From Candidatus Omnitrophota bacterium (GTDB taxonomy: Bacteria; Omnitrophota; Gorgyraeia; Gygaellales; Profunditerraquicolaceae), in NCBI GenBank assembly GCA_041650835.1, contig JBAZKL010000003.1, forward strand, positions 99,682 to 163,681: a stretch of DNA of 64,000 nt. Reading direction: 5' to 3'. Below are positions 22,311 through 40,989 of the stretch, piece after piece (the first letter of the stretch is position 1; each line of letters opens with the position of its first letter). Position numbers and translations under genes: made by a program. The notes beneath the pieces are model-generated. The model ran no database searches. It was given only the letters and a program-made list of their open reading frames with translations, and was not told the origin of the DNA.

Positions 22311-23155
22311 CCCACTAATGCTCCTTGGGTAACCCCTTTAACGATATATTTTTGCATAAGGATATAAACGATAATTATCGGTAACGCGGTAATGGTCAAA
22401 CCAGCCATTAAAAGAGGATATTTCGTGATAAATTCTCCCTGAAAAGTCTGCAACGCGACCTGCAGCGGCATAAGAGGCTTTGAATCAAAGATGATCAACG
22501 CTAACACGTATTCATTCCAAACATTAAGCGCGTTAAATACGACCACAACCGCAAGCACAGGCTTTGCTAAAGGCAGGGCCACATGCCACCATATTCCCAT
22601 TTTGGAGCAACCGTCTATTCGAGCCGCATCTTCAAGCTCTTTAGGCATCTTATCAAAGAAAGTTTTTAAAAGGAATATGCTCGTTGATAATCCCACGTTG
22701 ATCATGCAAAGGATATACCCGACAGGAGTATTTCTCAAATGGAGCTTATTCAATAAAACGTAGAGCGCGACAAAGCTCCCCGGAATGGGGATCATCATAG
22801 CGACCATAAAGACCGAGAAAAGTATCCCGCGGCCGGGGAAACGAAAACGAGAAAACGCGTACGCGGCCATGGAAGAAATAATGACGATACCGACGACAAC
22901 CGAAACCGTATAGAATATACTATTTAAAAAGTACCTTCCAAATCCGCCTTCCTGCCAGGCCAAATAGTAATTTTCAAAATGGAACTCATGAGGGAATAAA
23001 GACATATCCGTAAATATTGTTTCCTGCGTTTTCAGGCTGGAAGAGATCATCCAAAAGAGAGGGAAAAGGCACGTAATAGAAACGGAGATCAAGAAAAGAT
23101 GGATGAGCGTATTTAAAGCGATTTTCTTCGTCGTATAATAAGCCGTGCTCTTCAT
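22307..23155 (-). CDS. Carbohydrate ABC transporter permease (MalG-like)
   Basis: 282 aa with 6 TM helices and an EAA loop (LEDAARIDGCSKMGIWWHVALPLAKP). Confidence 0.85.
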   Translation of the reverse strand: MKSTAYYTTKKIALNTLIHLFLISVSITCLFPLFWMISSSLKTQETIFTDMSLFPHEFHFENYYLAWQEGGFGRYFLNSIFYTVSVVVGIVIISSMAAYAFSRFRFPGRGILFSVFMVAMMIPIPGSFVALYVLLNKLHLRNTPVGYILCMINVGLSTSIFLLKTFFDKMPKELEDAARIDGCSKMGIWWHVALPLAKPVLAVVVVFNALNVWNEYVLALIIFDSKPLMPLQVALQTFQGEFITKYPLLMAGLTITALPIIIVYILMQKYIVKGVTQGALVG

Positions 23156-23178
23156 TATAGTCTATCCTTATTCTTAGG

Positions 23179-24063
23179 TTATGTCTGACGGAATTTACGG
23201 GAGAACTGATATTGGATAAATGATATCGCCATCAGGACGACACCGAAGGTCAGCCCCTGCGCACAGGCATACCCGAACCGGGAAGAGCCCCGCATCGAAG
23301 CTAAGATCCGTAAAACAGGGACCGAAGTATATCCCCCGACCTCGCCTCCCACTAAACCGATGATCAAGACAAACGCCTGCATAGTTCCCAGGACCGTGAG
23401 TATCGCGACCAAAACCGTGACCGGTATCATTAAAGGAACCGTAATATTCTTAAAGCTGTGCCAGGCATTAGCCCCGTCAACCCGGGCCGCCTCATAGAGC
23501 TCCCGGGGAATAGTCTGTAACCCCGCCAGGAAAATGAGGAACCCCCAGCCGAAGCCTTTCCAGCAATGTACCAACGCGACCGTTGTCAAGGCGGTTTTCG
23601 GGTCATAAAGCCAATGCTGCGTCCATCCCGATAATCCTATTGCGGACAACATACGATTTATCATATTCGCGCCGTCAATATCATTAATAACATACCTCCA
23701 CACCATGCCGACGACGATCTCGGACAATACCGGGGGTATAAAGAAAATAAGCCGGTAATAGTTCTTTAAGCGTATTTCCCTGTCGCACGCCATAGCCAGG
23801 AGAAACGCGAAGATATTCTGCAAGGTAAGGGCTATTATTGTAATATATCCGGCGTTCCACATTGCCTGCCACCACGATTTGTCCTGAGTAACTATTTCAA
23901 TAAAATTACTCATACCGACGAATACCTTGGTCGGCATAATACCGTCCCATTCAAACCTGCTCAACTGGAAGACCCACAAGAAAGGAACAATATAAAATAT
24001 CGTAAAAATAAGCACTGCGGGGAGCACAAAAACGTAATTCTCTAAAGTATCTTTGATCTTCAT
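23179..24063 (-). CDS. Carbohydrate ABC transporter permease (MalF-like)
   Basis: 294 aa with an EAA loop (LYEAARVDGANAWHSFKNITVPLM). Confidence 0.85.
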   Translation of the reverse strand: MKIKDTLENYVFVLPAVLIFTIFYIVPFLWVFQLSRFEWDGIMPTKVFVGMSNFIEIVTQDKSWWQAMWNAGYITIIALTLQNIFAFLLAMACDREIRLKNYYRLIFFIPPVLSEIVVGMVWRYVINDIDGANMINRMLSAIGLSGWTQHWLYDPKTALTTVALVHCWKGFGWGFLIFLAGLQTIPRELYEAARVDGANAWHSFKNITVPLMIPVTVLVAILTVLGTMQAFVLIIGLVGGEVGGYTSVPVLRILASMRGSSRFGYACAQGLTFGVVLMAISFIQYQFSRKFRQT

Positions 24064-24180: not shown

Positions 24181-25515
24181 CTATTTCCTTTTCTTATTTA
24201 ATTCTCTCTCTTTGATCTTTTGGACCTCATCCGCGACCGCTTCAGGGGTCTTTTTGCCGATAATGATCAGCTGTATCCCTTTATCGAAAGCCTCGATCAC
24301 CGCGGGGAATTCCGACACACCCCAAATATTCGGGTGAGTTGTCTGCTCCATATCATCCGCGAACTGTGAAAGGATATCGGAGATATTCGCTAAACTCTCT
24401 TTGTTTGAAGGGAGGTTTTTTGTCGCTTCAGCTAAATATACTTCCTGGTCTTTTGAGGTAAGCCATTGCAGGAATTTCACCGCTTCTTCTTTTTTCGGCG
24501 AATTCGCGTTGACCATGAACGAAGACCCCGCCCCTCCCCATATCGCCATGGGATATTTATCCGACGCCGCAGGAGGCAGCATCGCCGCATAATTCAACTT
24601 GGGGTTCATCCCCTGATAAACATTGACGCACCAGGAGCCGTTAAAAGCAAAAACCGCCTTTTCAGTCGCGAAAAGCTGCTCGGCAGTCTTATTAACCATA
24701 GTCACGACACCGCCCGCCAGAACTCCCGACTCCTGCATCTGCTTAAAAAGGGTAAAGACCTTGATCCAATCAGGATCGGTATACGGGCTCTCTCCTTTAA
24801 TAGTCGCGAGCACCTTATCTTTACCCATGATATTGAACGCGTAATTATTCGCCAGGCAATCGATCATCCATAACTCGGCCCATCCTGAAACGAGGCCCTG
24901 CATGTTCTTCTCTTTGATCTTCTTGCCGATAGCTAATAATTCTTCGAACGTCGACGGAGCTTTCTCCGGGTCAAAGCCGAGCTCTTTCATAAGATCCTTA
25001 TTATAAACCATTTGAATGGTCATAATATCAATGGGCACGCCATAAATCCCCGGATTGATGCCGTAGCTGTTAGAAGGCGTAAATTCATTGACTGCCAAGG
25101 CTTTACTGAAAAAACTGTTTTCCCATTGCGCGTTATCGGCTTTCATATAGGGTGTCAGATCAAGGATATGCCCGGCTTTTATAAATGACGAAAAATCCCT
25201 TTTTTCACCCAATATGCCGAATATATCGGGCAGATTAGCCCCTTGCGCTGCCGCGCGTACTTTCTGAGAATACGCATCCGAAGGAGCGTACAACTCGAAG
25301 AAAACCTTTGTCCCGGTTTTTTCTTCATACCGCTTTGCCAACTCTTCAAAAGCAGGCTGTCGGTCAGTCATCCAATGCCAAATCGCGATAGTCGGTTTCG
25401 ACTCTATTTTCTTCGAAGCACAACCGGTGACACCCGCAAATGAAGCAAACAGAAACAAGGCTCCTACCCCGAGCGAGAGTTTGTTCATTATTGTTCTTTC
25501 TATACCGACTTTCAT
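24181..25515 (-). CDS. Extracellular solute-binding lipoprotein (family 1, sugar ABC)
   Basis: 444 aa, with a lipoprotein signal (LFASFAGVTGCASKK) and a family-1 SBP-like fold. No ABC ATPase gene is present in the operon. Confidence 0.8.
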   Translation of the reverse strand: MKVGIERTIMNKLSLGVGALFLFASFAGVTGCASKKIESKPTIAIWHWMTDRQPAFEELAKRYEEKTGTKVFFELYAPSDAYSQKVRAAAQGANLPDIFGILGEKRDFSSFIKAGHILDLTPYMKADNAQWENSFFSKALAVNEFTPSNSYGINPGIYGVPIDIMTIQMVYNKDLMKELGFDPEKAPSTFEELLAIGKKIKEKNMQGLVSGWAELWMIDCLANNYAFNIMGKDKVLATIKGESPYTDPDWIKVFTLFKQMQESGVLAGGVVTMVNKTAEQLFATEKAVFAFNGSWCVNVYQGMNPKLNYAAMLPPAASDKYPMAIWGGAGSSFMVNANSPKKEEAVKFLQWLTSKDQEVYLAEATKNLPSNKESLANISDILSQFADDMEQTTHPNIWGVSEFPAVIEAFDKGIQLIIIGKKTPEAVADEVQKIKERELNKKRK

Positions 25516-25913: not shown

Positions 25914-26522
25914 ATGAAAGATGAAATGGACATCCTCAGGGAGATGGGAACGATCTCAGCCGGACAGGGCAGTATCGCCCTTTCGGAAATAATCGGGAGA
26001 AAGATAAACCTTAAAGTCCCCGCCCTGACGTTTGTCTCCGGCACCGACATACTTAACCGTTTCAGGGAAAACCAGATCGTGGTCAGTATTTTAGGGAACC
26101 TGCTGACCGGCCTTGAAGGGAAGATCTTATTCCTGCTTGACGAAAAAAGCGCTTATAAATTGATCGACATGTGCTACGGCAGGAAACCCGACGAAAAACA
26201 ATGCGGGGTATTCACCGAAATGGGGATGTCGCTGATGAAAGAAGTGGGAAACGTGGTGATTTCTTCTTTTGTCGGGGCCTTAAGCATTCTTTTGAAATCC
26301 TTGATCATCCCCTCCATCCCGACACTGGTAAACGGCCCGATCAAGCAGATACTGAACATGATACTGTCTTCTGATGACGAATATGTCCTTTTTATAGAAA
26401 CAACCTTTGAAGAGCCTCAACAGAATATCACCGGATGTTTTTACCTGGTATTGACCCCGCAAACAGTCCAGTTTATCCAGACCGCGTGTAAAAAAATGCT
26501 TGAAAACATTAATCAAAGCTAA
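25914..26522 (+). CDS. CheC/CheX-family protein (divergent)
   Basis: 202 aa. The first CheC active-site repeat is degenerate ([14 protein letters not shown], with N replaced by T). The second retains S-x3-E-x2-N (SLMKEVGN). Confidence 0.55.
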
Positions 26523-26524
26523 CC

Positions 26525-27487
26525 ATGAATGAGAGCAAGAACGAAAATACAATATTGATCGTCAGCGCTGACCCTCAGAATATTAGCTTCTTATCGGAAC
26601 TCTTAAGCGGAGAAGGATATAAGGTCAAAGAATGCTCGACCCAGACGGGAGCGAAAGAAATCCTGCTGCAAGAGCAATTTAACCTGGTTATCGCTGATTT
26701 CGAAGCCAACCAGATGAACGGCATTGAGATCTGTAAATTTATCCGCAGTAATTACCGTATTCGCCACATCAGCGTCATTATGCTCATGAATTCAAAAGAC
26801 CCCCTGAACAAGATCAAAGGCATTTACGCGGGAGCGGATGATTATATTGAGACGCCTTTCGACCCGGGAGAATTATTAGTCCGGATAAAAGCGTCACTCG
26901 TGCGGCTGACCAGGGATTTAGATGCCAACCCTTTGACCAAACTTCCCGGCAACGTTTCAGTGATGAAAGAGCTCGAAGAGCGGGTAAAGACTAATGTTCC
27001 GCTGGCGGTCGGATATGTCGACTTAAACAAATTCAAGGAATTTAACGACCGCTACGGATTTGAACGCGGAGACACGATCATCTCGCATACCGCGGTCACT
27101 ATCATGAATGCTTTAGAGAAACACGGCTCGCCGACCGATTTCCTCGGGCATATCGGGGGTGATGATTTTATTTTCATCTCTACCCCGGCTTGTGTCGATA
27201 CAATCTGTAAACAGATCATTTCCAACTTTGACAAAACGGTCACCTCGTATTATGAACAAGAAGACCTTGCCAATGGTTATATTATCGCGCGCAACAGAAA
27301 AGGCGAAATGACCAAGATCCCTCTTCTGAGTATTTCCATCGGGGTTACTACCAATGAACACCTTAAGTTTACCCACATTGCCGCTATTATACAGAACGCT
27401 ACAGAATTAAAGCATTTTGCCAAAACCTACGGCGGAAGCATCTACTTAAAAGACAGGCGACAGAGAACCGACGCCAACCCTTCTTAA
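26525..27487 (+). CDS. Response-regulator receiver fused to a GGDEF domain with a non-canonical GGDDF motif
   Basis: 320 aa. The REC domain (LVIADFEA) carries the conserved Lys position as Thr (DDYIETPF). The GGDEF domain shows [27 protein letters not shown] and [10 protein letters not shown]. Confidence 0.75.
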
Positions 27488-27586: not shown

Positions 27587-27886
27587 TTACAAAGTATTCA
27601 TGATGGTGTTGATCTTTTCAAACATAACACCTACTTCATGCGAGGCATGCTTTGTCGATTCTTTTACCCAAACAACCTTGCCTTCGACAAAATAGGTGCC
27701 GAACTGCGGAGTAACCCTGAACTCTCCCGTCACCTTACTTCCGACAGGAACTGTTTCATTAAGAAAGACCCTCATCCCGCCGCTGCTCAGATCCGCAATA
27801 GGGACTTCCTTTTTTTCATGACCCTTGCCGAATGTTGCCTTATTATTCTCTATATTCCAGCGGCTATATTTTCTTCTCTCGTCCAA
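27587..27886 (-). CDS. PilZ-domain protein (c-di-GMP receptor)
   Basis: 99 aa. It has an RxxxR motif (RRKYSRW) and a DxSxGG motif (DLSSGGMRV). Confidence 0.8.
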   Translation of the reverse strand: MDERRKYSRWNIENNKATFGKGHEKKEVPIADLSSGGMRVFLNETVPVGSKVTGEFRVTPQFGTYFVEGKVVWVKESTKHASHEVGVMFEKINTIMNTL

Positions 27887-27911
27887 CGTCTTATAATACC
27901 CTGTTGTAAAC

Positions 27912-30272
27912 TTATTTTACTTTGAATTGGCCGACCAATTCCCTTAATTCAGAAGATGTTTTCGCTAATTCAGCCGCCCCCGCGCTCATTTCTTCCATTG
28001 ACGCGGTCATTTCCTCGGTACTGGCAGAGAATTGCTGGGTCGACGCGGCATTCTGCTCTGCGACTTGGGCGACCTGCTTAACCACATCCATGACTTTCTC
28101 CGTGGCACGGATCTGCTGCGGTACCGACTCTGAGATCGTGATCATCAGGTCCTTCGCTTTATTTGCCACGGTAAGGATACTTTCCTGGACTCTACTGGTG
28201 ATCTGGACGATCTTTCTTCCGTCTTCAGCCTGTTCCTTTTCACTGACTACCAGGCCTACAGCCCTGTCGATCTCATTAATGATCTTTTGGACCAATTGCT
28301 GGATCCTGTTGGCCGCGTGAGCAGAACCTTCGGCAAGCTTTCTGACTTCTTCAGCAACGACGGCAAACCCTCTTCCCGCGTCACCCGCGCGCGCCGCTTC
28401 AATTGCAGCGTTCAAAGACAAAAGATTGGTCTGATCGGCAAAAGATGTAATGGTGACAATAATGTCCCCGATCTCTTTAGAGCTATCTTTCAATTCCTGA
28501 ATAGCGGTCGATGATAAATTAGCCGCCTCAACTATCTTGTTGATCTTGTCGATCAACTGGATCGTGGATTCTTTACCCTGTGCCGCGTGTTCCGCCGACT
28601 TAACAGAGCTGTCTTTGGCAACTTCGGCATTGGTAGCGACCAGCTTCAGCCTTGAGGCCAATTCATCGAATATCTTCTCGACCTCGCGGACCTTATCCAG
28701 CTGGGTAGAGGCGCCCTTAGAAATATCCTGAATACCATTGCTTATCTGCACCATTGAGGCATTAGTTTCTTCGGCATTCGCGGAAAATTGCTGCGCGGCA
28801 TTTGAAACCTGTTCAGTATTCACCAAGATCTGCGAGATCATATTACGCATTTGTTCGACGAATACATTGAACCAGTTCGCGAGGTCCCCGATTTCATCGG
28901 AAGATTTGATGGAGATCCGATTGGTCAGGTCGCCTTTTCCTTTAGCTAATGTCTTAAGCATGGCAAGCATAAGCGTGCTCGGCTTGGTAATAGTACGGAC
29001 AATGACCAAAGAAACAATGACGAAAACAACCGCGATAATGATCATCGACCCGAATAAATAAATCAAAGAACTCTTGCCGACTTCAACGATACCCTTTTTA
29101 ACCTGCTCAACCGAAGAAATCTTGATTTCCTCAATACGCTTGGCGGCAGATTCCTGAGATTCATTTAATGCATTCCTTGAATCTTCAATAACCGCAGCTG
29201 CGCCCTTAACGGTCTCCGCGGCCTTGGTATCGATCTCTTTACGCATCTCTTCGCCAAATGCCGAAAGCTCTTTCGGTACTTCGGTATTTAAACGGTCGAT
29301 CTTACCTGAAAGAGTTTTCTCAACCGTCGATATCTTTTCACGCGCTTCAGACTGAATATTAATGACTTTAGCGATCGAGTCTTCAAATAAAGCCTGCAAT
29401 ACCTGAGAAGTCATGATCTTTTCTTTATCGGCATCTGTCTTGATCTTCAAGTCCATAAGGCGCATCTGCTCTTTAATGACTCCGATAACGCGCTTGATCT
29501 CTCTTTGCGTAGTGGAATATGCCTGGCCATAGCCTTTTTTGATATTATTCTTGAGACTCTCCTGCAAAGGCATGATCTGTTCCATAGCTTTATCAGAGCT
29601 AAAACCTGGAGTAGCGGACGCAGCTTCCCCTAAGATCGTCATCATCTGGATCGTATTGTCATCAACCTGGTCGTTTAAACCTCCCGTGATCTCCTCTAAT
29701 TGATGTCCTAAAATGACCAACACTTCTTCTATTTTACCGAATCCGTCTAAACTTGCCTGGATCAAACCCTCAACGCGAAAATATGCCAATTGAGTTAAAA
29801 CATCCTGGGATGTTGTCGCTTCTTCAATAGTCTGGCCTACAGCTTCAGAGGCGACCGCCAAGCTGGAATTAAAGCCATCCGCCATGGTAACTTCAAGCTC
29901 TTTCAGGGAAAGCGCGACATCCGAACCCGTTTTTGTGATCATTTCCTGGGTATACCCCTGGAACTTACCCTGGCTCTTCTGGGCAATTTCTTTTATCTCA
30001 CCCAAGGCGACTAAACCGCTGGTTTTTTTGACGCTCTCTTCAGCGATATTCTGGAAATTCTTAAAAAGATTTTTAACATCATTAAAAACATTATCGAAAG
30101 AATCAGTGACATTCTTACTGATATCCCGCTCGAGCCTCTTATTAGAAAGAATACCGGAGATGATCGCGCCGCTGCTGGATAGTAAAAAGATTAAAATAAC
30201 AAGACCTAATATCTTATGAGAAAGCCTTAACTTAAAACCTTTTTTCTCTTCCATGATAATGTTTTCGCTCAT
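27912..30272 (-). CDS. Methyl-accepting chemotaxis protein with a large helical periplasmic domain
   Basis: 786 aa. It has an N-terminal TM, a ~400 aa helical ectodomain, a second TM, a HAMP domain ([19 protein letters not shown]) and the conserved signalling hairpin ([38 protein letters not shown]). Confidence 0.9.
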
Positions 30273-30282
30273 AGTTATGTTT

Positions 30283-31248
30283 TTATTCGCTATACCGCGT
30301 GTCTATGATTTCTTTTAAATTTACCATCCCGCTTAGAACATTCAACGACATCAGGTTCTTGGCTATCTCTTCTATCTCTTGGAGCTGCGGGGTGAAATTC
30401 TTAAAAATGATCCTATCCTTAGGCATAGTCAATGACCGGGAGACCAGTTCAGGGTTCATTTTAAAAATGTTCACCTGGGACATCGCGGTCTGCCTGCCGC
30501 TTGAATCATTTTTATCTTTTTCGATAAAGTTCCCCGCTTTGATCAGGCCTTTAACAAACGCCTTAACCACATCAGGATGCTCTTTCAATACCTTAGGGCT
30601 GACGATAAAAACGCTATTAATAAGGTTAGGGTATACATCTTTACTGAGAATGACCCTTTTTGCTACCCCTTCTTTTTCCGCCAGCGCTCCATAAGGCTCT
30701 GAAAGGCAAAAACCGAAGATCCTGTCCTCTTTCATAAGAGATATGGTCCTGCTAAAAGGAATAAGTAAGTAACGCACATCACGGCCCATACGCAGCTTCT
30801 TATCTTTCAGGAAGCGGGCAAAAACAAGCAGATCCATGGTATCATTGCCGGAACCACCCATGATCTTTCCCTTCAACTCGTCTACCGAATCGCTATTAAG
30901 AACGATCGTGCTGCCGTTTCTTCCGACGTTAAGAAGGATCTTTAACGGAACACCCTCATACGCCATTAATAATGCCTTAGGCAGGGTTATAGCGGCCCCA
31001 TCGATAGCTCCCGTCCGGAAAGCGGCTTCAAGCGCGGTCCATGAATTATACACATCCAATTGCACTTTTTCTTTCGCGACAGTAGTAGCTATTTCCTGCT
31101 GCGCCAGGAGCAACGGGATATGCTCAACAAGAGGCATAACACCGACTCGCATGTTATATTCCTCTTGTTGAGCAAAAACACCTACGGTTCCCAGAAAAAC
31201 CATTACAGCGACTACACAGGCTTTAAAAACTGATTTTTGATTTTTCAT
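30283..31248 (-). CDS. Orphan periplasmic substrate-binding protein (NMT1/SsuA-TauA-like)
   Basis: 321 aa with a signal peptide and a type-II PBP-like fold. No permease or ATPase gene is adjacent. Confidence 0.55.
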
Positions 31249-31271
31249 ATTTAAGCTGGTACGTATCCCGA

Positions 31272-32552
31272 TTAAAATTTCTCTTTATCATCCCACTTTA
31301 CCGGATTATCCTTCTTGGTAGGTGCGACTTTTTCTCCAGGCACTTCGTCAATGATCTTAACCAGGTCCCATTCACCGTTCATTTCGGAGGCTGCTTTTCC
31401 TTCGAGGATCAATGTTGAAGTCATCGCCTGATGATCCCAGTCTCTCCAGGATTCTTCACCCTTAAGGACCGTGAACTTATGCCCTTCAAGCGCTTTAATC
31501 ACGGCCTTAGCGTCGATAGATCCCGCTCTTTTAACCGCGTCGGTATATTCCATAATAGCTACCCAGGCAGCAGCAGCAGCATTGCCGGGATATGTTCCAT
31601 AGCGCGCTTTAAATTTCTCGACAAAAGTCTTAGATCCGGGATATTTATCCTGTAACTGCCATTCCCACGGGGAAGTACAGATAACCCCTTCCATCGCTTC
31701 CGGCCCGGAACCTTTTGCCATATAAAGCTCCATCAACGGAACAACGATCTTTAAATCTTTTTTAACACCCATCGCTGTCGCTTGCTTTAAGGAGTTGATC
31801 ATATCTTTTCCAAACTGCACCAAAACCAATACGTCCGGTTTCGCAGCTTTAGCATCCAAAAGATATTTTACAAAGCTTTTCTCACCTAAAGGAGAACGTA
31901 CCGCGCCGATGGTCTGGCATCCGGCAGCTTCCAAAACTTGGCGGAAAGATTTTTCAACCGTATGGCCCCAGGTATAATCAGCGGTCACATAATAATATTT
32001 AGCGCTTTTTCCGAATTTGTTGATCAAATACTCGCTGGCCGCATGCGCGGACATCCACGCGTGATGATACCAACGGAATATATAGCGGTTGAGCGCCTGA
32101 TAAGTAGGCTCACCCGTCTTTGCGTCAATCTCATAACCGGTTGTCGCGTCTGAATGGCTCAAACACACCATAAAGATTTTGCCTTTTTCTTGCGCGACTT
32201 TCGCCTGCGCGACAGCTTCGCTGCTGGCAGAACCACCGGTCACCATAACCGCGTTATAAGTATCGTATAATTCAGCGGCGTTCTTCGCGGAAACCTGCGC
32301 GTTCGTTTCTGAATCTTTTTCCACATATACAACGCGCTTGCCTAATAATCCTCCGGCAGCGTTTACTTCATCAATGGCTAATTTATACGCTTTGAGCTCA
32401 TCAGCACCCTGATCAGAATAAGAACCGGTCAAAGGAACATTTATACCAATGGTTAAGGTATCTTCTTCAGCATGGCCGGCAGGAACAAATAAACTCATTC
32501 CCGATACCACCAGGCTTAACGCGAGTAAGAAAACAAGAACTTTTCCCTTCAT
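31272..32552 (-). CDS. Orphan periplasmic binding protein, type-I (LivJ/LivK-like branched-chain amino-acid binding family)
   Basis: 426 aa with a signal peptide. It shows GINVPLTGSYSDQGADELKAYKLAIDEVNAAGGLLGKRV, typical of Leu/Ile/Val-binding proteins. No permease or ATPase gene is adjacent. Confidence 0.8.
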   Translation of the reverse strand: MKGKVLVFLLALSLVVSGMSLFVPAGHAEEDTLTIGINVPLTGSYSDQGADELKAYKLAIDEVNAAGGLLGKRVVYVEKDSETNAQVSAKNAAELYDTYNAVMVTGGSASSEAVAQAKVAQEKGKIFMVCLSHSDATTGYEIDAKTGEPTYQALNRYIFRWYHHAWMSAHAASEYLINKFGKSAKYYYVTADYTWGHTVEKSFRQVLEAAGCQTIGAVRSPLGEKSFVKYLLDAKAAKPDVLVLVQFGKDMINSLKQATAMGVKKDLKIVVPLMELYMAKGSGPEAMEGVICTSPWEWQLQDKYPGSKTFVEKFKARYGTYPGNAAAAAWVAIMEYTDAVKRAGSIDAKAVIKALEGHKFTVLKGEESWRDWDHQAMTSTLILEGKAASEMNGEWDLVKIIDEVPGEKVAPTKKDNPVKWDDKEKF

Positions 32553-32571: not shown

Positions 32572-32612
32572 TAATAAAAAAAGCGAAAGTGACCTTTCTT
32601 TCGCTTTAAAAA
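32572..32612 (-). terminator. Rho-independent terminator (palindromic), downstream of the minus-strand outer-membrane protein gene
   Basis: The plus strand reads AAAAAAAGCGAAAGtgaccTTTCTTTCGCTTTAAAAAA. On the minus strand the stem is followed by a T-run. Confidence 0.5.
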
Positions 32613-32858
32613 ATGTTCCGCAAGAATAATGATGGGAATTTAGATTTTTCATTTGCATTAACTCTATAATAAAGATTTTAAATTTTTTGTCAAGATTTTT
32701 TTAATAAATCTTTACGCCTAACGATGAAAACTTAAAGACCCGATCTATCTCGACGATAAACTTCACCGCGAACATCGTCCTTCACAAACCATACAACACT
32801 GTTACGAAAGGGGGAGGATAATCACCTATCCTTCCCCTTTCGCTTAAGAATAATTACT

Positions 32859-34250
32859 TTAGAATTTCAGTTCGAGCTGCGTCCTTAAGAAACAGGCGTC
32901 ATCTGCGCTGGCCACATAAAAATCACCGGGATGGAAATATTCGCCCATCACAAGCGCCGAAAGATTCTTATTAAAGGTATAATCGAACTTCGCCTGAGTA
33001 AGCGTGCCTCTGTTCTTGCCCGTGCCGAAGGTATCACTCGTCGGGGCGATAGTCTCATTGGCTTTTAAATAATAGTACGCAAGGCTCAGCTTCGACTTTT
33101 TCGTCGGAGACAACAACAAACCGATCTTATACAATTGTAAGTTGGTCCAATAGCCGAGGGCACCCGCCTCGTTATTATACGTCAGATAATACAGTTCGGA
33201 ATAAACATCCGACATGATCGGCCAGCGGGAAAACAAAGGATTCCAGGATTCATTGGTAGATGAATCGCGGTCATCGCCTGACAAATACATATACCCGGCA
33301 TTGAGGACAGGAGAGAACATGACCTTTTTGAAATCCCGGGTAACGAACCCATACCCACCCATAGCCCTGCGGGCATCATCGCCGTACTTGCCGAACTGGG
33401 ACGCGAGCTGGCCTTTAAAAGTCCAAGGCGCGATAGTATATTTCGCGTAGGTGCCTACCGTACTTAAAGTACTCTTCCTGGCGCCCAACTTACTACCGAT
33501 ACCGCCCTCTTCGGCTTTGTAGATGTAATAATTCTCCAAATGCAGCTTCTTTGAAGGATCGCTCTTAAGATATGCGATAAAACCTTGTTCATCCCCGAGA
33601 TTAAGCTGCTGCTCTGCTCCCGTAGCTCCCGCGGGAAGCCCTTTACCGTCAAGGCGATTGATCACGGGTAATTTTTCATCAGTTGCGTCGTCAGAAAGAT
33701 AGATCAAATCAAGAGTATTCTTCTTATCGATCTTCCAAGAAGCCTTGATCGCGTCGAAATAGACCGTTCTCGATCCGTCTTGAGGAGTTCCGTCGGAGAT
33801 CAAGAAACCTTCTCCATACTGCCCGATAAGATCCTGGCGGCCGACTCTCACATCAACCGGTAATTCCCCGAAATTCTTAACGTCAAAATAAAGATTATCA
33901 AATACTACTTCATTAATATCGAAATGAAACCCTTTTTTCTTAGTTCCTGAAGCTTGGTGATAAAATGTATACGCCCTGTTCTCATTGGTCAACTTACCGT
34001 ACAAGGTAAGTTTCTTGGTAACATTCGCCTGCCCCCACAATGATGTCTTTATCCTGAAGAAATTACGGTTATCACTTGTCGGGGTAGCGCTTACCAAGCC
34101 ATTGGTCATATCATTCCAGTTTCTCCAAAATTCATGGCGTACGCGCAAATACGGCCCCCACTTGAATGTCACTTCAGCAAAAACAGGCGAAGCGACCATA
34201 ATACCTACCAGCGCAAAAGCAATAAGACAAAGCCAGTATTTCTTATTCAT
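32859..34250 (-). CDS. Outer-membrane beta-barrel protein (porin-like)
   Basis: 463 aa with a signal peptide (MNKKYWLCLIAFALVGIMVASPVFA). It has alternating amphipathic beta-strands rich in Y/G/T/N and a C-terminal aromatic residue (…LRTQLELKF). Confidence 0.55.
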   Translation of the reverse strand: MNKKYWLCLIAFALVGIMVASPVFAEVTFKWGPYLRVRHEFWRNWNDMTNGLVSATPTSDNRNFFRIKTSLWGQANVTKKLTLYGKLTNENRAYTFYHQASGTKKKGFHFDINEVVFDNLYFDVKNFGELPVDVRVGRQDLIGQYGEGFLISDGTPQDGSRTVYFDAIKASWKIDKKNTLDLIYLSDDATDEKLPVINRLDGKGLPAGATGAEQQLNLGDEQGFIAYLKSDPSKKLHLENYYIYKAEEGGIGSKLGARKSTLSTVGTYAKYTIAPWTFKGQLASQFGKYGDDARRAMGGYGFVTRDFKKVMFSPVLNAGYMYLSGDDRDSSTNESWNPLFSRWPIMSDVYSELYYLTYNNEAGALGYWTNLQLYKIGLLLSPTKKSKLSLAYYYLKANETIAPTSDTFGTGKNRGTLTQAKFDYTFNKNLSALVMGEYFHPGDFYVASADDACFLRTQLELKF

Positions 34251-34912
34251 TCCGCACCTCCTTATTGTTAGTCCACCTAAAAATTTGCATTACGAATTCC
34301 TGCTTGCCCGCTGTTCACCTAACAGGCCTTTAGACAGGAAAAAACGCTTTAATGAAGAATTGATTATTATACCAACCTGAAAAAGAGCGCAAATTTTAGG
34401 TTTCACCCTTACAATAACCCATCCCCCAGAGATCGGTTACAAAACACTAAAACAACACACAACTAATCAACAACCTATGTACAGCTTATCTACATCTTAT
34501 ATACATCTTTTCCACAGCTTATGCACTATTATATGCACAGGCCCTGTTTTGTCAAGTCTTTTTTTTAAGTTTTTTTTCATTAGCCCCCGAAGCAATAATC
34601 CTTCCTTACACCGACGGAGAGTCACCGTAAACAATATTAACGGTAATAATTCATAAATCTAAATGGAATAATTAGTTATGGAAATAACTCCGGATAGGAG
34701 GCCTAAGGAGGGAGGTTGGAAGGAGATGAAATAACATCAACCTATGGGGTTAAAATGATCATTAATGCGTTATAAATGACAGGCTTCCTATATATAGGTA
34801 GTTTTATGGTTAAAAGTGGCCCTAACTCAAGCAACAATCACTAACAGGTAGCTCAATTAGGGTACGGAGAAAGGTTAAGTAGTTGGATTATTTAACGTTA
34901 ATGATAAAGATT

Positions 34913-35160: not shown

Positions 35161-36834
35161 TTATACTGTTTTGTCCTGTAATTTAAACTTTTGTACCGTT
35201 TCCTTTAATTCTACGGCCAAACGGGCAACTTCCTGGCTCGAAGCGGCAACTTCCTGCATGGAAGCAGTTTGCTCCTGGGTATTCGCCGAAACATGCTCTA
35301 TCGCGGTTGCCGACTCTTTAGCTATCTGCGTAACTTCGCTTATTACCTTTACCATGCCCTCTATCTCAGCAACACTATCCTGGCCGGTAGAAGCAATATG
35401 GTTAACAAATACGGTAGCCTCCTGGGCAACCTTATTAATCTCCCCCAAAACCTCAGTTATTTTAGCTACCTGGGCCCGGCCGCCCTGGACTTCTTTTGAA
35501 CTGGCTTCAATGGAATTAACCGCGCGATTAGTTTCTTCCTGGATCAACGTGATCAGCCCCCCGATCTTACGCACAGCTTCAGCTGCGCCCTCAGCGAGCT
35601 TTCTAACTTCTTCGGCAACTACCGCGAAGCCTCTCCCCGCGTCTCCAGCCCTGGCGGCCTCAATTGCCGCGTTAAGCGCCAAAAGATTGGTCTGATCCGC
35701 GATAGAAGTGATAGTCTCGGTGATCTCTCCTATCTGCTGCGAAGTCTTGCCAAGCCCCTGAACAACAGAAGTTGTCTCTAAGACCGTATTTGTCAAATGG
35801 CTTATTCTTTCTACAGTTTCCAAAGCTGCGATACGCGCGCTTTCCGCGCAAGCCGTTGTCTGGCCAACCGCCCTATGCGCCATTTGAGCATCTTTAACCA
35901 CATCCTTAAGATTATCAGCTGCCCGGCCCATAGCTTCAAATACCCCATTGATCTGCTTTGCCTGAGTATTGGCGCCTTTACTTACCTGCGCCACGGAATA
36001 AGCGACTTCTTGCGTTGAAGAACTCATTTCCTGAATAGTATGCGTCGTCTCTTGTAAAGAAAACGCCACCTTATCGGCAATTCCGCTGATCTGAGCGATC
36101 ATGTCGCGTAACCCTTGAGACATCTTAGAGAATGCTTTCGACAACTCCAGCATCTCATCATCGCCCTTCATCTCGATCGCCCCCAAAGAAAGATCACCGG
36201 AAGAGATTTTCTTAGCAATAAGCATAAATGCCGACAAGGGCCGTAAAACATGCTTTTCCAGGAAAAGGCTGTACAGTACACCCCCGCCGACCAAGACTAA
36301 GACGCATAAAAAAACCGCCAGCATGATAATGCCGTTAACATCCGCGATGATATACTTATCCGTAATTCCCACCCTCAAGATACCAACGGCCTGAGTGCCT
36401 GACATAACAGGAATAACCGCCTCGAAAACACTCCCATAGCCGGGCCGCTTAAGGATAAACTGGCTTTTTGCCTTAAGACAGCGCTTCTCATCCGCTGTTT
36501 TGTTCAGGTATTTTCCCTCCAGGTCCCGGCGCGTGGAAACCAACACCAACCCTTCTTTCTCAAGAAGGATAATATACTCAATATCGAAATTCCTGCCCCG
36601 GGCATCTTCGAATAAACGGGAAATCCGGTCTATCGCGCCGGATTCTAAAAGGTCCCTGCATGAAAGCGCAAGGCTTGACGCCATGTTCTCAGCCGCTAAC
36701 TGCTGCATCGAAAAAAGCTGGGCGCGCATTCTATAGCCGACAACCGACAGCACTATGGCAGTTACCAGGGAAACAACCCCGAGAAAATAAACCATCATTT
36801 TCAATTTCATCCGGGAGCTATTCGCGAGATCCAT
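35161..36834 (-). CDS. Methyl-accepting chemotaxis protein
   Basis: 557 aa with two TMs flanking a ~150 aa periplasmic domain, a HAMP domain, and the signalling hairpin [38 protein letters not shown]. Confidence 0.9.
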
Positions 36835-36979
36835 ATACCCTCTGAAGCTGTTGAGAATTTAACGAACGGTTACTGATCTTGTATTGAATAAACAGCAAAA
36901 ACTGCTTTCGCTTGATAAAAAAGGCTGGAACAAATCAAAAACCCTGAAGACATCCTTCGATAAGGCAGGCAGGCGAAGC

Positions 36980-37504
36980 TTAACTTTCTTTTTCTTTACC
37001 TTCTTTCAGCACAGACGCGGAGGAGCCCTTCACCCGCTCAACATGCTGCACTTCTTCGGGGCTCAAGACGCTCTTAAGGTCTAAAAGGATCAAAAGCCTG
37101 TCTTTTAATTTCCCGACCCCCCAGATATAATGTTCAGGGATCTCCGTCATAACCAGCGACGGGACGTCTTCAACATATTCTGAAGATAACCGCAACACTT
37201 CTGAAACCGAATCCACGATCATGCCCACGGTGTTATCGCCGAATTCCACGATAACGATACGGGTGCGCTCCCCGCGTTCTTTAGCGGTAATACCCAATCT
37301 TTTCGCCAAATCAATAACAGCGACTACCTGGCCGCGCAAATTAACGACACCTTCGATAAAAACAGGAGCCTTGGGTAAATAGGTGATTTGCAGCAACCGG
37401 ACAATTTCCCTTACCTGGCTTATATCAACACCAAACTCTTCTTCCCCGATCGTGAAAACAACCAACTGGTATTCTTTTAATTTACTTTCAGCCATGAGGA
37501 TCAC
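36980..37504 (-). CDS. cheW: Chemotaxis coupling protein CheW
   Basis: 174 aa with a CheW-like SH3-type domain (EYQLVVFTIGEEEFGVDISQVREIV...). Confidence 0.9.
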   Translation of the reverse strand: MILMAESKLKEYQLVVFTIGEEEFGVDISQVREIVRLLQITYLPKAPVFIEGVVNLRGQVVAVIDLAKRLGITAKERGERTRIVIVEFGDNTVGMIVDSVSEVLRLSSEYVEDVPSLVMTEIPEHYIWGVGKLKDRLLILLDLKSVLSPEEVQHVERVKGSSASVLKEGKEKES

Positions 37505-37531
37505 CCCCTGTTATGAACTGCCCGGAAATAA

Positions 37532-38143
37532 CTATTCTTTTAATCCTAATAAATCAAATATTTTCAACAATGAGTCCGTTGACGGGAACAACAAAAACAA
37601 GCCTTCGAGATTCAACCCCTTAACTTTCATATCGGTCTTGATCACAATCGCCTCTTCCGAATACTGCGCGATCTGTATAAAAATAAAATCCAGGATAGCA
37701 CCCACCATATCCATCGCTAACGAAGGGATAGAAGTAAGGATGTTTTGGTGGACCATGTCGGCCAAAGCGGATAAATACGACCCGCCTAAGATATTCGCTG
37801 ATTCTTTTAAAGAGGACTGGAACAAGGAATCGTTAAAATCGATCTGGTCTTTAGGCAAACCCAGAAGGCTGCTGGATAAAAGCCGCGCGTCATTCGGAGA
37901 AAACAATAAAAATATCCTCCCGTAAATATCCCCCTTGATCTCCATATCTAAAACAAAAAATAACCGGTCCATTTCCCCTAATAATTTATAAATCTGCTCC
38001 AAGGGAACCATGGTAACTTCAGGGACGTTGATCTCGACTTTCTCAGCGACCAGATCGGCCAAGGCAGTAGCGGCATTGGCAGCGCCGATAGTGCCGATCT
38101 CTCTTATCAGATCCATCTGAGCTAAAGAAAACTTTTTATCCAT
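37532..38143 (-). CDS. cheC: CheC-family phosphatase
   Basis: 203 aa. Repeat 1 is DLIREIGTIGAANAATALADL, with N replaced by T. Repeat 2 is SLKESANILGGSYLSALADM, with E..N retained. Confidence 0.75.
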   Translation of the reverse strand: MDKKFSLAQMDLIREIGTIGAANAATALADLVAEKVEINVPEVTMVPLEQIYKLLGEMDRLFFVLDMEIKGDIYGRIFLLFSPNDARLLSSSLLGLPKDQIDFNDSLFQSSLKESANILGGSYLSALADMVHQNILTSIPSLAMDMVGAILDFIFIQIAQYSEEAIVIKTDMKVKGLNLEGLFLLFPSTDSLLKIFDLLGLKE

Positions 38144-38164
38144 GACCGATTCCTTTTTTATTAA

Positions 38165-39208
38165 CTATATTTTTTCTAATATCGCTTTCGCTATATCAAA
38201 AACAGGCAGCACCGCGTCAGACAAGCCGGCATCATAAATAACTTTCGGCATACCCCAGACAACCGATGTCTTCTCATCCTGGATAATTACCGTACCGCCT
38301 TTTTCTTTTATTTTCCTTACCCCTTCCAAAGCGTCCTTACCCATCCCCGTCAAGACTACCACGACAACATTCTTACAGTCATAATTCTCAACGACCGACA
38401 ACAGTGTCACATCCGCTGCAGGGCGGACAAAATTCACGAGAGGCCCCTGGTTCAATTTTATCCTTAAAACCCCTTTTTCATTTTCAATCCCCATATGGGA
38501 GCCGGCAGGCGCGACAAAAGCTTTTCCAGCGACAAGAATATCGCCCTCCTCAGCCTCTTTAGCCTTGATCTTTGACTGCCAGGAGATCCTTTCAGCAAAG
38601 CTTAAGGTAAATCCCAGCGGCATATGCTGGATTATCAAAAAAGACGCGGGGACATTCGCGGGGATATCCCGCATAACATCTAACACCGCTTTCGGGCCGC
38701 CCGTTGAAGCCGCTATCAAAACCAGCTTCTTAAAGGCGATCGGTTTTACCTCCGCGCCAAAAGTATCTGCTTTAAATTGTTCTTTTGAAGAGACCTTCGT
38801 CACCTCAACCTTAGCCGCTAATTTTATTTTCGCGATAATCTCATCTTTAAGCTTATTGATATCTAAAGAAATCTCGCCTGATGGCTTGGCAACAAAATCA
38901 ACCGCCCCTAACTCCAGCGCCCGCAATGTCGCGGTCGCGCCCGCGCGGGTATACGCGGAGATCATGACAACGCGCGATGGCTGTTTTTTCATTACTTCTT
39001 CAAGGACGCTTAACCCATCCAGCAAAGGCAAGTTTATATCCAAAGTGATCACGTCGGGCTTGAACTCGTATATTTTTTCCAAAGCCTCTTTACCGTCTTT
39101 CGCTTTACCGATTATTTCCAAAGCCGGATCGCTCTCAATAATATCGGAAATGATCTGGCGCATCAAGAATGAATCGTCAACGATTAAAACACGTATTTTA
39201 TTTTCCAT
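38165..39208 (-). CDS. cheB: Chemotaxis methylesterase CheB (REC plus methylesterase)
   Basis: 347 aa. It has an N-terminal receiver domain (VLIVDDS...DVITLDINLP) and a C-terminal catalytic domain (ASTGGPKAV, IIQHMPLGFT). Confidence 0.9.
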   Translation of the reverse strand: MENKIRVLIVDDSFLMRQIISDIIESDPALEIIGKAKDGKEALEKIYEFKPDVITLDINLPLLDGLSVLEEVMKKQPSRVVMISAYTRAGATATLRALELGAVDFVAKPSGEISLDINKLKDEIIAKIKLAAKVEVTKVSSKEQFKADTFGAEVKPIAFKKLVLIAASTGGPKAVLDVMRDIPANVPASFLIIQHMPLGFTLSFAERISWQSKIKAKEAEEGDILVAGKAFVAPAGSHMGIENEKGVLRIKLNQGPLVNFVRPAADVTLLSVVENYDCKNVVVVVLTGMGKDALEGVRKIKEKGGTVIIQDEKTSVVWGMPKVIYDAGLSDAVLPVFDIAKAILEKI

Positions 39209-39696
39209 TATACTTCTTTCTCTCCCCAGGAAACCGTTTTAACCAGGACCTTACCGTCATCCAAATTAAGCTCGATCGTTCTCCCGAAACTACCGCCCGT
39301 TTCCTGGACATCGACCTTCATATCTAAAGCCTTAAGCGTGATCATGGCAACTTCAAGGTTCTTTTGGCCGACATTAAGGATACTATCGGAAGCAATAAAA
39401 CCGAACATATGCGCTCCGCCGAAAAGCTTGGTAACAATTGAGCTGCGCGACACGCCCCGCTTCTCCATTTCTTCGACCATCTTCGTAAGAGCGGAGTTGA
39501 CAAACCGGCTGGGATTTGATTTAATCTTGGCTTTCTCGATATCAGGGAGCATCGGATGCGCCATCACGCCGATCTTCTTTGACGGGTCATACATAGTGAT
39601 ACCTAAACAGGAGCCAAGCCCCCGGGTGATCAATCGTGCAGGGGCTTCGGATATTTCCATTTGAGCCATATTTACTTCAATGGTTTTTGCTTCCAT
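39208..39696 (-). CDS. cheD: Chemoreceptor glutamine deamidase CheD
   Basis: 162 aa with GLGSCLGITMYD and GVMAHPMLP motifs. Confidence 0.85.
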   Translation of the reverse strand: MEAKTIEVNMAQMEISEAPARLITRGLGSCLGITMYDPSKKIGVMAHPMLPDIEKAKIKSNPSRFVNSALTKMVEEMEKRGVSRSSIVTKLFGGAHMFGFIASDSILNVGQKNLEVAMITLKALDMKVDVQETGGSFGRTIELNLDDGKVLVKTVSWGEKEV

Positions 39697-39709
39697 GATA
39701 ATCGTACCC

Positions 39710-40081: not shown

Positions 40082-40136
40082 CTGCTACCTCCTTTGTATT
40101 TTTGAATCAGGCCTTCTTTAAAGTCCCGGAATACAT

Positions 40137-40982: not shown

Positions 40983-40989
40983 TCTATAA

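Follow-up and report, generated by a model that had tools for sequence, protein, structure and literature searches.

The window, a 64 kb stretch of DNA, carries on its minus strand four head-to-tail genes separated by gaps of 23, 10 and 25 nt (Table 1), whose coordinates and strand are exactly those of the first-pass annotation. They had been read there as a LivJ-like binding protein, an NMT1/SsuA-like binding protein, an MCP and a PilZ protein, and Pfam agrees in all four cases. The first two products (hereafter PBP6 and NMT1_2) are a LivJ-type, type I and a NitT/TauT-type, type II periplasmic binding protein, each with a Sec-type signal peptide (...AGHA/EED and ...GVFA/QQE, respectively); the periplasmic domain of the MCP is hereafter called ECTO. 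A consensus scan places a candidate sigma-70-like promoter ahead of the four genes, matching at 11 of 12 positions, and both of its hexamers are kept in loci L008, L009 and L002. The 5' leader contains a terminator-like hairpin which may be an attenuator or stabilising element. Its structure, with other stem sequences, is seen again in related Omnitrophota-type loci, and a search of Rfam returned no matching family.

Table 1. Features of the four-gene operon and its surroundings in the 64 kb window.
Feature	Coordinates	Strand	Size or start	Assignment and position
PBP6 gene	31272..32552	minus	426 aa	Peripla_BP_6, 258 bits, E 2e-76 (Pfam)
NMT1_2 gene	30283..31248	minus	321 aa	NMT1_2, 96.7 bits, E 2.5e-27 (Pfam)
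MCP gene	27912..30272	minus	786 aa	HAMP residues 424-476, MCPsignal 558-737 (Pfam)
ECTO	29070..30143	minus	~358 aa	Periplasmic domain, residues ~44-401, between TM1 and TM2
PilZ gene	27587..27886	minus	99 aa, TTG start	PilZ, 48.4 bits, E 1e-12 (Pfam)
Candidate promoter of four-gene operon	32666..32693	minus		Sigma-70-like; TTGACA, 16 nt spacer, TATTAT
Leader hairpin	32580..32607	minus		Terminator-like hairpin then U-run; 5' leader, directly upstream of PBP6 Shine-Dalgarno
Outer membrane porin	32859..34250	minus		Alginate_exp (AlgE-like) family, E 2e-19 (Pfam); directly upstream of triad operon
Porin promoter	34555..34528			12/12 match
che cluster	35161..47256	minus		Pfam; upstream of triad operon
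CheC-like protein	25914..26522	plus		Convergent with PilZ operon
REC-GGDEF-like response regulator	26525..27487	plus		Motif GGDDF; convergent with PilZ operon
BPD_transp_1 pair	22307..24063			Permeases of a separate sugar system
SBP_bac_1 protein	24181..25515			Binding protein of the same sugar system

The MCP is made up of TM1 (residues ~21-43), ECTO, TM2 (~402-425), HAMP and a signalling domain. Some 310 residues follow the HAMP domain, with a hairpin tip near residues 631-636, and this length suggests a signalling domain of the 44-heptad class; EE-containing motifs resembling methylation sites are also present in the MCP. The periplasmic domain had been described at first pass as all-helical and ~400 aa long. 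It is in fact shorter, though still unusually long, and AlphaFold2 does predict it to be entirely helical, folded as one long hairpin whose tip falls around residues 221-225 (pLDDT 76), while the low pTM of the model (0.37) makes its shape and any docking surface uncertain. No Pfam sensor family matched ECTO up to E<=10, Foldseek comparison of the model with the PDB gave nothing significant, and ECTO matches just 35 clusters (50% identity) among 1.84 billion representative proteins. Judged by sequence, it belongs to an undescribed domain family, 29 of whose 33 members are MCPs; four ECTO-HAMP-PAS-HATPase kinases were found, two by Pfam (L066 and L068), one by a custom ECTO profile and length (L070), and P0057.

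Is the arrangement peculiar to this window? The conserved unit consists of three genes, encoding PBP6, NMT1_2 and the ECTO receptor (hereafter the triad), and 35 distinct triads were found in uncultured anaerobic bacteria from Omnitrophota, Desulfobacterota and Lentisphaerae/Verrucomicrobia bins, plus unbinned contigs, in genomic contexts unrelated to one another. Starting from NMT1_2, the order PBP6, NMT1_2, ~780-aa MCP is present at every locus (L001-L014). An independent start from ECTO gives the same picture: at L016, L019 and L023, whose contexts are unrelated, ECTO relatives only 21-25% identical follow a PBP6 and an NMT1_2 gene, and one ECTO histidine kinase has both binding-protein genes upstream. 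The PBP6/NMT1_2/long-MCP arrangement is far from chance, since all related loci that were examined have this gene order. When metagenomes are entered with PBP6, 30 of 49 closest-clade loci are complete triads and 8 more are triads truncated at a contig edge. Some closest-clade loci with enough flank are without NMT1_2 and ECTO, the PBP6 gene being followed by a zinc-ribbon/HAMP protein (L032) or a dCache MCP (L047). That the binding proteins, MCP and PilZ are functionally unrelated and merely share one operon is scarcely credible and is effectively refuted by the synteny data: order and adjacency are kept across phyla and contexts, the NMT1_2 stop codon overlaps the receptor start codon in four lineages (L004, L007, L016 and the P0057 locus), and the components co-diverge.

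The first-pass annotation had found no cognate permease or ATPase for either binding protein, and none is present within the 64 kb. LivH-type permease and ABC ATPase queries gave no tblastn match in the window, and Pfam scans of nearly all its ORFs of >=110 aa recovered as permeases only two BPD_transp_1 proteins, which form a separate sugar system with their own SBP_bac_1 protein. Over the window and flanks of <=10 kb, which set the scope of this absence, ABC importers adjoin none of the 35 distinct triads and none of the 49 closest-clade PBP6 metagenome loci; the sole exception among triad loci is L007, with a Liv-type importer ~4 kb upstream of the triad and unrelated genes between. A transport-dedicated orthologue, named at first pass as a case that would count against a sensory role, was not found for either protein in comparison with NCBIfam equivalogs: PBP6 scores 96 bits, far below the cut-off of ~490 for urea and Liv transport, and NMT1_2 scores 70 bits against a transport cut-off of 163.5. 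Both proteins might still mainly supply ABC importers encoded elsewhere and signal to the MCP only secondarily, as in the MBP-Tar model, given that both families are dominated by transport proteins and that a more distant PBP6 relative (L084) sits in a LivHMGF-type operon, so that the wider PBP6 clade includes transport proteins. This is improbable in view of the low equivalog scores, the lack of adjacent importers and the triad's movement as a unit among unrelated contexts, where it also precedes histidine kinases; moreover, a bacterial binding protein with both uses typically has its gene beside those of its transporter, not beside a receptor gene (PMC8050422). Comparative genomics strongly supports the view that both binding proteins, lacking a transporter, appear to work for the chemoreceptor instead.

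To that extent the first-pass proposal stands, the triad recurring in 35 lineages with no adjoining importer and also with histidine kinase output, but it draws no distinction between the two binding proteins. Across 27 triads the NMT1_2 and ECTO distances correlate at r = 0.958 (partial Mantel r 0.85 with PBP6 controlled for, p = 0.0005) and those of PBP6 and ECTO at r = 0.00 with NMT1_2 controlled for, mirror-tree correlations being inflated by shared ancestry and rate differences and partial Mantel tests being known as liberal. PBP6 is the slowest-evolving part of the module, at about half the rate of the others (mean p-distances of 0.37 for PBP6, 0.64 for NMT1_2 and 0.69 for ECTO), and even the remotest triads retain 48-53% identity in it. 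Seven triads of a single metagenome have median identities of 80% for PBP6, 45% for NMT1_2 and 42% for ECTO. These comparisons indicate that the binding proteins are not equivalent, NMT1_2 being the constant, co-evolving partner of ECTO and PBP6 a slowly evolving component.

The two proteins could instead provide parallel inputs, each binding its own ligand and docking separately on ECTO, with the receptor integrating two cues and no relay from PBP6 to NMT1_2. Trg offers a parallel, as it accepts two different binding proteins, those for galactose and ribose. PBP6 and NMT1_2 are structurally different, the modelled length of ECTO could offer two sites, L022 keeps NMT1_2 and the receptor but has no PBP6, and 24 of 31 clade-B loci couple a PBP6 relative directly to another MCP with no NMT1_2 present. 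Such an arrangement is conceivable yet rather doubtful, as the PBP6-ECTO distance correlation is lost once NMT1_2 is controlled for and PBP6 stays almost unchanged where ECTO differs by >50%, even within one metagenome. With one partner near-constant and the other so altered, a specific PBP6-ECTO interface is hard to reconcile with the data unless the contact is among the few conserved ECTO motifs.

Both proteins have genuine binding-protein folds. The AlphaFold2 model of NMT1_2 (pLDDT 91.7) has 3UN6, NrtA, SsuA and TauA as its top structural matches, and the family profile has its top PDB match in 8WM7 (E 1e-17), to the C-terminal NrtA-like regulatory domains of NrtC and CmpC. Those domains share the NMT1-type fold and are there for regulation, not substrate delivery; they form one cytoplasmic polypeptide with an ABC ATPase, whereas NMT1_2 is secreted and free-standing, and in its family the NrtA-type nitrate-binding histidine motif GVVHSAS is not conserved but replaced by GGSGNDT. 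This replacement and the divergence of NMT1_2 at the pace of ECTO would fit one or both proteins being structural or regulatory parts of the receptor (adaptor, clamp or assembly factor), with ECTO itself sensing, and the closed, ligand-free Venus-flytrap domains of BvgS offer a precedent. The idea is nonetheless unlikely: sequence comparison shows invariant polar residues in the NMT1_2 family (W70, E74, R78, D136, E243, Q253 and Q258), the model gives NMT1_2 a bilobal fold at high confidence, and PBP6, whose nearest solved structure is 3I09 (E 2e-38), shows very strong purifying selection of the kind typically seen where a ligand binds.

The triad operon is the distal operon of a complete che cluster, ordered CheY, CheC/X, CheA, CheC, FtsA/PilM-like, CheR, CheY, CheD, CheB, CheC/X, CheW and sCache_3_2 MCP, with type IV pilus genes ~10 kb from the cluster. 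A che cluster also adjoins the triad in L002, L005, L009 and L014. The AlgE-like porin has its own promoter and is an accessory confined to the window's lineage, a porin upstream of the triad recurring only in L002, L005, L008 and L009.

The locus is probably a dedicated, transporter-independent, binding-protein-mediated extracytoplasmic chemosensor composed of PBP6, NMT1_2 and the ECTO receptor. A small solute would cross the outer membrane, in the window's lineage possibly through the co-located porin, and would be captured by the binding proteins. NMT1_2 would be the receptor-proximal partner, docking on the ECTO coiled coil, and PBP6 the strongly conserved ligand-recognition part, acting on the same complex via NMT1_2 or alongside it. 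The resulting conformational change could pass through TM2 and HAMP to the ~44-heptad signalling domain, which presumably feeds the upstream che cluster by controlling its CheA/CheW, with adaptation by CheR, CheB and CheD. The trio, shared by dozens of uncultured anaerobes, most likely detects its chemical by an indirect route, with the binding proteins as intermediaries.

Of the known sensors, archaeal BasB-BasT and TorT-TorS appear to resemble the triad most. In Halobacterium, amino-acid taxis requires basB, the gene directly upstream of basT, and mutants in the binding protein and in the transducer are impaired in taxis in the same way (PMC8050422). The Halobacterium salinarum pairs BasB-BasT and CosB-CosT share with the triad a dedicated binding-protein gene directly upstream of the receptor and the lack of a transporter, and BasB, like PBP6, is a Peripla_BP_6 protein. 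These archaeal systems have one binding protein per transducer and a dCache-like ectodomain, whereas the triad is bacterial, with two binding proteins, each of its own structural class, and an ectodomain of ~358 aa predicted to be all-helical. In TorT-TorS and LuxP-LuxQ a dedicated type I binding protein, encoded with the sensor and again without a transporter, is pre-associated with the periplasmic domain, which in TorS is an elongated helical bundle. The triad module likewise occurs on histidine kinases, but it has a second, type II binding protein and its usual output is an MCP; neither by sequence nor by fold could ECTO be matched to TorS, HBM or any Pfam sensor domain. MBP-Tar, the analogue offered at first pass, is the wrong one. 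There, as in GBP/RBP-Trg, DppA-Tap and PstS-CtpL, a periplasmic binding protein presents ligand to a chemoreceptor, but MBP, GBP/RBP, DppA and PstS are transport components encoded with their own ABC transporters (PMC8050422). Tar, whose sensor is a four-helix bundle, and Trg, Tap and CtpL use 4HB or HBM domains, from which ECTO differs, and the triad lacks a transporter and keeps its binding-protein genes in one operon with the receptor. BasB-BasT, TorT-TorS and LuxP-LuxQ are closer because their dedicated sensor binding proteins are encoded next to the receptor (PMC8050422).

The first-pass annotation had also included PilZ in the sensor, on its output side. It falls outside the conserved module, standing beside only 4 of the 35 triads, all of the window's own lineage, and an output-side role is conjecture. 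Its RxxxR (R5..R9) and DxSxxG (D32..G37) motifs are invariant in four orthologues, and comparison with solved PilZ structures gave no detectable sequence similarity. The CheC-like/REC-GGDEF-like pair is kept together with PilZ in the window's lineage and may be linked to it; the three would form a lineage-only add-on that probably couples c-di-GMP to the pathway. MapZ (PA4608), a single-domain PilZ protein, acts on chemotaxis through CheR1. Both it and the window PilZ are small, stand-alone proteins with intact c-di-GMP motifs, the latter encoded in a chemosensory context and accompanying the triad in one lineage only.

Four minus-strand ORFs lie where the first-pass annotation had drawn them, head to tail and separated by gaps of 23, 10 and 25 nt, within the 10-35 bp it had claimed. 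Its family assignments are upheld by Pfam: Peripla_BP_6 for the secreted LivJ-type binding protein (hereafter PBP6), NMT1_2 for the secreted NitT/TauT-type binding protein (hereafter NMT1_2), HAMP and MCPsignal for the MCP, and PilZ for the last and smallest protein. The periplasmic ectodomain of the MCP (hereafter ECTO) is indeed predicted to be all-helical but measures ~358 aa, not ~400 aa, between transmembrane (TM) segments at about residues 21-43 and 402-425. A public read-set assembly contains an identical contig with the same gene order, and the NMT1_2 of the window is 100% identical to a protein of a Candidatus Omnitrophota MAG. By Pfam, a long chemosensory cluster runs along the minus strand, and the four-gene operon lies at its distal end.

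Coordinates of features in the window and in two homologous loci
Feature	Coordinates	Strand	Remarks
PBP6 gene	31272..32552	-	LivJ-type binding protein
NMT1_2 gene	30283..31248	-	NitT/TauT-type binding protein
MCP gene	27912..30272	-	786 aa, bears ECTO
PilZ gene	27587..27886	-	99 aa
Sigma-70-like promoter	32693..32666	-	precedes PBP6 gene
Terminator-like hairpin and U-run	32607..32580	-	about 50 nt after promoter, just 5' of PBP6 ribosome-binding site
CheC-like gene and REC-GGDEF-like gene	25914-27487	+	convergent on PilZ, downstream of operon
Second REC-GGDEF paralogue	54466-55422	+	
che cluster		-	in order: CheY, CheC/X, CheA, CheC, FtsA/PilM-like 715-aa protein, CheR, CheY, CheD, CheB, CheC/X, CheW
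Genes after CheW			in order: sCache_3_2 MCP, Alginate_exp-family outer-membrane porin with own promoter, four-gene operon
715-aa protein gene	41413-43560	-	inside che cluster
Type IV pilus or T2SS-like genes	57988-63933	-	PilO, PilM, PilC/T2SSF, several N-methyl pilins
Sugar-type ABC system	19917-25515	-	SBP_bac_1, two BPD_transp_1 permeases, then TPR/GH2 glycosidase
Split MCP, locus L004	2734-5064		Desulfobacterales MAG
380-aa protein after PBP6, locus L032	8387-9529		

The unit that is conserved across genomes is a triad of PBP6, NMT1_2 and the ECTO-bearing receptor, and not a tetrad. The operon had been annotated as a single unit of four; its first three members recur together, whereas PilZ, like the porin, accompanies only 4 of 35 distinct triads, all from the window's own lineage. 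The NMT1_2 family is small (23 clusters; 7 loci among 185,579 species genomes), and every locus found through it encodes PBP6, NMT1_2 and a ~780-aa MCP in that order. A word-indexed search with the ectodomain returned only one match because of its low-complexity helical sequence, and HMMER was instead run in full over 1.84 billion representative proteins. Only 35 clusters matched. Of the 33 ECTO family members examined with Pfam, 29 proved to be MCPs and one a histidine kinase, with no Pfam domain on any ectodomain; three more ECTO receptors, from the metagenome loci described below, have no MCP signalling domain, two of them being histidine kinases by Pfam. Relatives at only 21-25% identity again have PBP6 and NMT1_2 directly upstream. 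These distant members occur between leuS and comEC in an Omnitrophota genome, on an unbinned contig, in a Lentisphaerae/Verrucomicrobia bin, and as an ECTO-HAMP-PAS histidine kinase followed by three REC-HD-type regulators. PBP6 is missing from one locus that encodes NMT1_2 and the receptor, and in another PBP6 sits at the far end of a che operon.

A metagenome search with PBP6 gave 413 matching stretches, of which the best 80 loci were analysed with our own profiles. Among these, 30 of the 49 loci of the closest PBP6 clade are complete triads and 8 others are triads interrupted by a contig end. The order is PBP6, NMT1_2, receptor in 23 of the complete triads and receptor, PBP6, NMT1_2 in the remaining 7. 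The stop codon of NMT1_2 overlaps the start codon of the receptor in four lineages. The PBP6 profile itself reaches further, to at least 731 clusters, with named ones from Omnitrophota, Candidatus Magnetomorum, Desulfobacula and Thermodesulfobacteriota. In one Desulfobacterales MAG (L004) the MCP is split into two ORFs of 561 aa (ECTO and HAMP) and 185 aa (signalling domain), which could reflect a frameshift, a pseudogene or an assembly error.

If two binding proteins accompany each receptor, what do they serve? In bacteria, nearly all known cases of indirect sensing through binding proteins involve transport proteins with a second role at a receptor, and the signals of most bacterial chemoreceptors are unknown. 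The absence of a permease or ATPase near the two binding proteins was confirmed for the 64-kb window by Pfam scans of ORFs and by tblastn, in which LivH-type permease and ABC ATPase queries had no match. Within the 64 kb, ABC components are limited to two sugar-type permeases and the SBP_bac_1 protein that goes with them; this system lacks an ATPase gene in the whole window and presumably relies on a shared ATPase encoded elsewhere. No ABC importer adjoins any of the 35 distinct triads (0/35), and importers are absent from all 49 closest-clade loci, where the lone "ABC" match is an exporter 4 kb away. The likeness to MBP-Tar suggested at first pass therefore fails on gene content: neither the 64-kb window nor the 35 triads encode the binding protein with its own permease and ATPase. 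Triad loci instead have a binding-protein gene adjoining a receptor gene with no transporter, the arrangement of a dedicated pair. A dual-use model, in which the binding proteins also feed a transporter encoded elsewhere in the genome, is unlikely because synteny speaks against it.

Family membership was compared with curated transport models, and neither protein reaches the cut-off of any transport equivalog. PBP6 belongs to PF13458 (258.1 bits, gathering cut-off 31.7). Its nearest curated models are urea-type and Liv-type, but it scores far under the NCBIfam cut-offs (TIGR03669, 96.7 vs 494.8; TIGR03407, 95.4 vs 492.75; PRK15404, 65 vs 477), which places it outside the UrtA-type urea and LivJ/LivK transport equivalogs. 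NMT1_2 matches PF13379 (96.7 bits, cut-off 24.7) and stays below the SsuA_fam cut-off (70.2 vs 163.5), and is thus no transport orthologue of SsuA, NrtA or CmpA by these measures. The most likely reading is that the module is a dedicated, transporter-independent chemosensor in which the binding proteins would mediate ligand detection. In these phyla, the annotation [quoted passage not shown] is probably attached to many genes that encode sensors and not transport components.

Both binding proteins start with Sec-type signal peptides. The closest solved relative of PBP6 is 3I09 (E 2e-38), for which co-crystallisation with acetoacetate is reported (bioRxiv 10.1101/251942). As a weak guess, the ligand of PBP6 might be a small carboxylate or keto-acid, or an amide- or urea-like compound. 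The AlphaFold2 model of NMT1_2 (pLDDT 91.7) has the classical type II bilobal fold; its closest structural matches are 3UN6 (TM 0.80-0.88), NrtA (0.80), the CmpC regulatory domain, SsuA and TauA. The best match of the family profile is the nitrate-binding regulatory domain of NrtC (E 1e-17), whose histidine motif GVVHSAS aligns to an invariant GGSGNDT in the NMT1_2 family; the anion-binding motif is not conserved.

The receptor is an MCP by its HAMP and MCP signalling domains (Pfam), its two TM helices and the che cluster directly upstream, and the length of the signalling domain suggests the 44-heptad class. The ectodomain is less familiar. ECTO has no match to known sensor families in Pfam even at E<=10, and Foldseek against the PDB gives no significant match, only generic coiled coils. 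No profile or fold match places it among 4HB_MCP/TarH, HBM, TorS-like, PilJ, CHASE3 or NIT domains, and assignment as an HBM, TorS or 4HB domain was rejected for want of Pfam or Foldseek support. The AlphaFold2 model is all-helical (pLDDT 76, pTM 0.37) and at this low pTM reads as one long helical hairpin with its tip near residues 221-225; were the hairpin straight, each arm (about 176 residues) would measure roughly 25 nm. Conserved motifs of ECTO fall near residues 84-100, 130-185 and 333-343.

The three components evolve at different rates. PBP6 has many invariant motifs, and in the most distant triads it retains 48-53% identity, compared with 26-32% for NMT1_2 and 21-25% for ECTO. Across 27 distinct MCP-type triads, mean p-distances are 0.37 for PBP6, 0.64 for NMT1_2, 0.69 for ECTO and 0.62 for the signalling domain. 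The distance matrices of NMT1_2 and ECTO correlate at r=0.958, whereas ECTO correlates less well with its own signalling domain (0.78). With PBP6 controlled, NMT1_2 and ECTO keep a partial r of 0.85 (p=0.0005; mirror-tree statistics are liberal); the partial values are 0.00 for PBP6 and ECTO with NMT1_2 controlled, and 0.47 for PBP6 and NMT1_2 with ECTO controlled. Seven complete triads of one metagenome have median identities of 80% (PBP6), 45% (NMT1_2) and 42% (ECTO). On this correlative evidence, NMT1_2 would be the partner nearest the receptor, and PBP6 a recognition component that evolves slowly. Together with the stop/start codon overlaps, the co-divergence of NMT1_2 and ECTO lends indirect support to a putative docking of binding protein on ectodomain.

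How might the parts be arranged? Provided that binding proteins mediate detection, the main alternative is that the two dock independently on the receptor in a Trg-like manner. A layered, envelope-spanning receptor can also be envisaged, improbable as we consider it. Here a dimer of ECTO would make up a four-helix coiled-coil stalk reaching at most about 25 nm, each arm comprising about 176 residues; NMT1_2 (type II) would sit on the stalk and PBP6 (type I) would stack upon or beside NMT1_2. Where a genome carries several paralogous modules, these would then be insulated from one another by the co-diversification of NMT1_2 and ECTO, and the near-constant PBP6 would act as a common ligand-recognition unit. 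Such layering resembles that of the outer domains in eukaryotic ionotropic glutamate receptors, where a LivBP-like layer lies above a type II ligand-binding layer.

Low-GC (29-40%) metagenome Ga0272440 contains thirteen distinct loci of the closest PBP6 clade (L041, L048-L052, L054-L058, L061 and L063), mostly in receptor-PBP6-NMT1_2 order where the receptor is in view. PBP6 is 74-94% identical among them and NMT1_2 and ECTO only about 42-45%, suggestive of a large expansion of paralogues within a single organism or a few relatives.

The PilZ protein matches PF07238 (48.4 bits, cut-off 22.5). Binding of c-di-GMP is plausible because both PilZ motifs, RxxxR (R5..R9) and DxSxxG (D32-L-S-x-x-G37), are invariant in four orthologues. 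Likeness to MapZ, a PilZ protein that binds CheR, was sought among solved PilZ structures, with no PDB sequence match at E<=10. The CheC-like and REC-GGDEF-like pair is also convergent to PilZ in the homologous loci L002, L008 and L009, and this co-occurrence suggests that PilZ and the pair may form a local c-di-GMP branch of the pathway. The REC-GGDEF-like protein has the signature GGDDF instead of GG(D/E)EF, and its match to the Pfam model is partial (positions 5-120 of 161). The window also holds a second REC-GGDEF paralogue. An ORF scan of the 64-kb window found no flagellar genes; about 10 kb separate the che cluster from a type IV pilus or T2SS-like gene set on its upstream side. Pilus-based behaviour, and not swimming, might therefore be what the pathway controls. 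The 715-aa protein encoded between CheC and CheR is unusual for a chemosensory operon, combining an FtsA/PilM/MreB-like actin fold in its N-terminal half with a ThiS/TGS-like region.

The operon's sigma-70-like promoter is conserved and the promoter-then-hairpin layout recurs in seven other loci (L002, L005, L008, L009, L014, L028 and L029). Of the regions upstream of closest-clade PBP6 genes, 10 of 57 have such a hairpin, with differing stem sequences, vs 0 of 27 in a more distant clade. The hairpin might act as an attenuator or stabilise the 5' end of the mRNA. A riboswitch or known RNA was rejected, as Rfam gave no match at gathering or E-value thresholds and the fold z-score of the leader is only -0.63. 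The hairpin had also raised the possibility of a cytoplasmic AmiC/NasS-type sensor acting with an ANTAR antiterminator; this was rejected, as both binding proteins carry signal peptides and no ANTAR protein was found among the ORFs scanned.

Chemoreceptor-linked binding proteins of bacteria are encoded with transporters, and in archaea basB (Peripla_BP_6) and cosB lie just upstream of their own transducer genes (PMC8050422). TorT-TorS and LuxP-LuxQ are kinase counterparts of such pairs. The module described here would be comparable in working to BasB-BasT, TorT-TorS and LuxP-LuxQ. It differs from them in its two binding proteins of different structural classes, in its undescribed ectodomain, and in its portability across phyla and output types. 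No description of the triad was found in the literature searched.

The locus represents a recurrent, self-contained sensor cassette in which an ectodomain not described before is combined with two different binding proteins; the cassette is spread over several phyla of uncultured anaerobes and is wired to chemotaxis and two-component outputs. For the chemoreceptor and sensor-domain field, its interest lies in a new ligand-binding-domain family to define (ECTO) and in what may be the first bacterial family of chemoreceptor binding proteins that are dedicated and transporter-independent. It also offers a natural system in which to study the joint action of two binding proteins on one receptor and the means by which cross-talk between paralogous modules is avoided.

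Other partners of PBP6 occur. A closest-clade PBP6 gene in locus L032 is followed by a gene for a 380-aa protein that carries a zinc ribbon at its N-terminus and a HAMP domain, in place of NMT1_2 and ECTO, which may be another kind of signalling partner. A sister PBP6 clade (about 42% identical; metagenome contigs L073-L104) has no NMT1_2, and a Liv-type importer is present in only one of its 31 loci. In 24 of the 31, PBP6 lies directly beside an MCP with another ectodomain, unannotated or dCache_1, and without a transporter; these bacterial pairs of binding protein and chemoreceptor, apparently dedicated too, make up a second family of simpler build.
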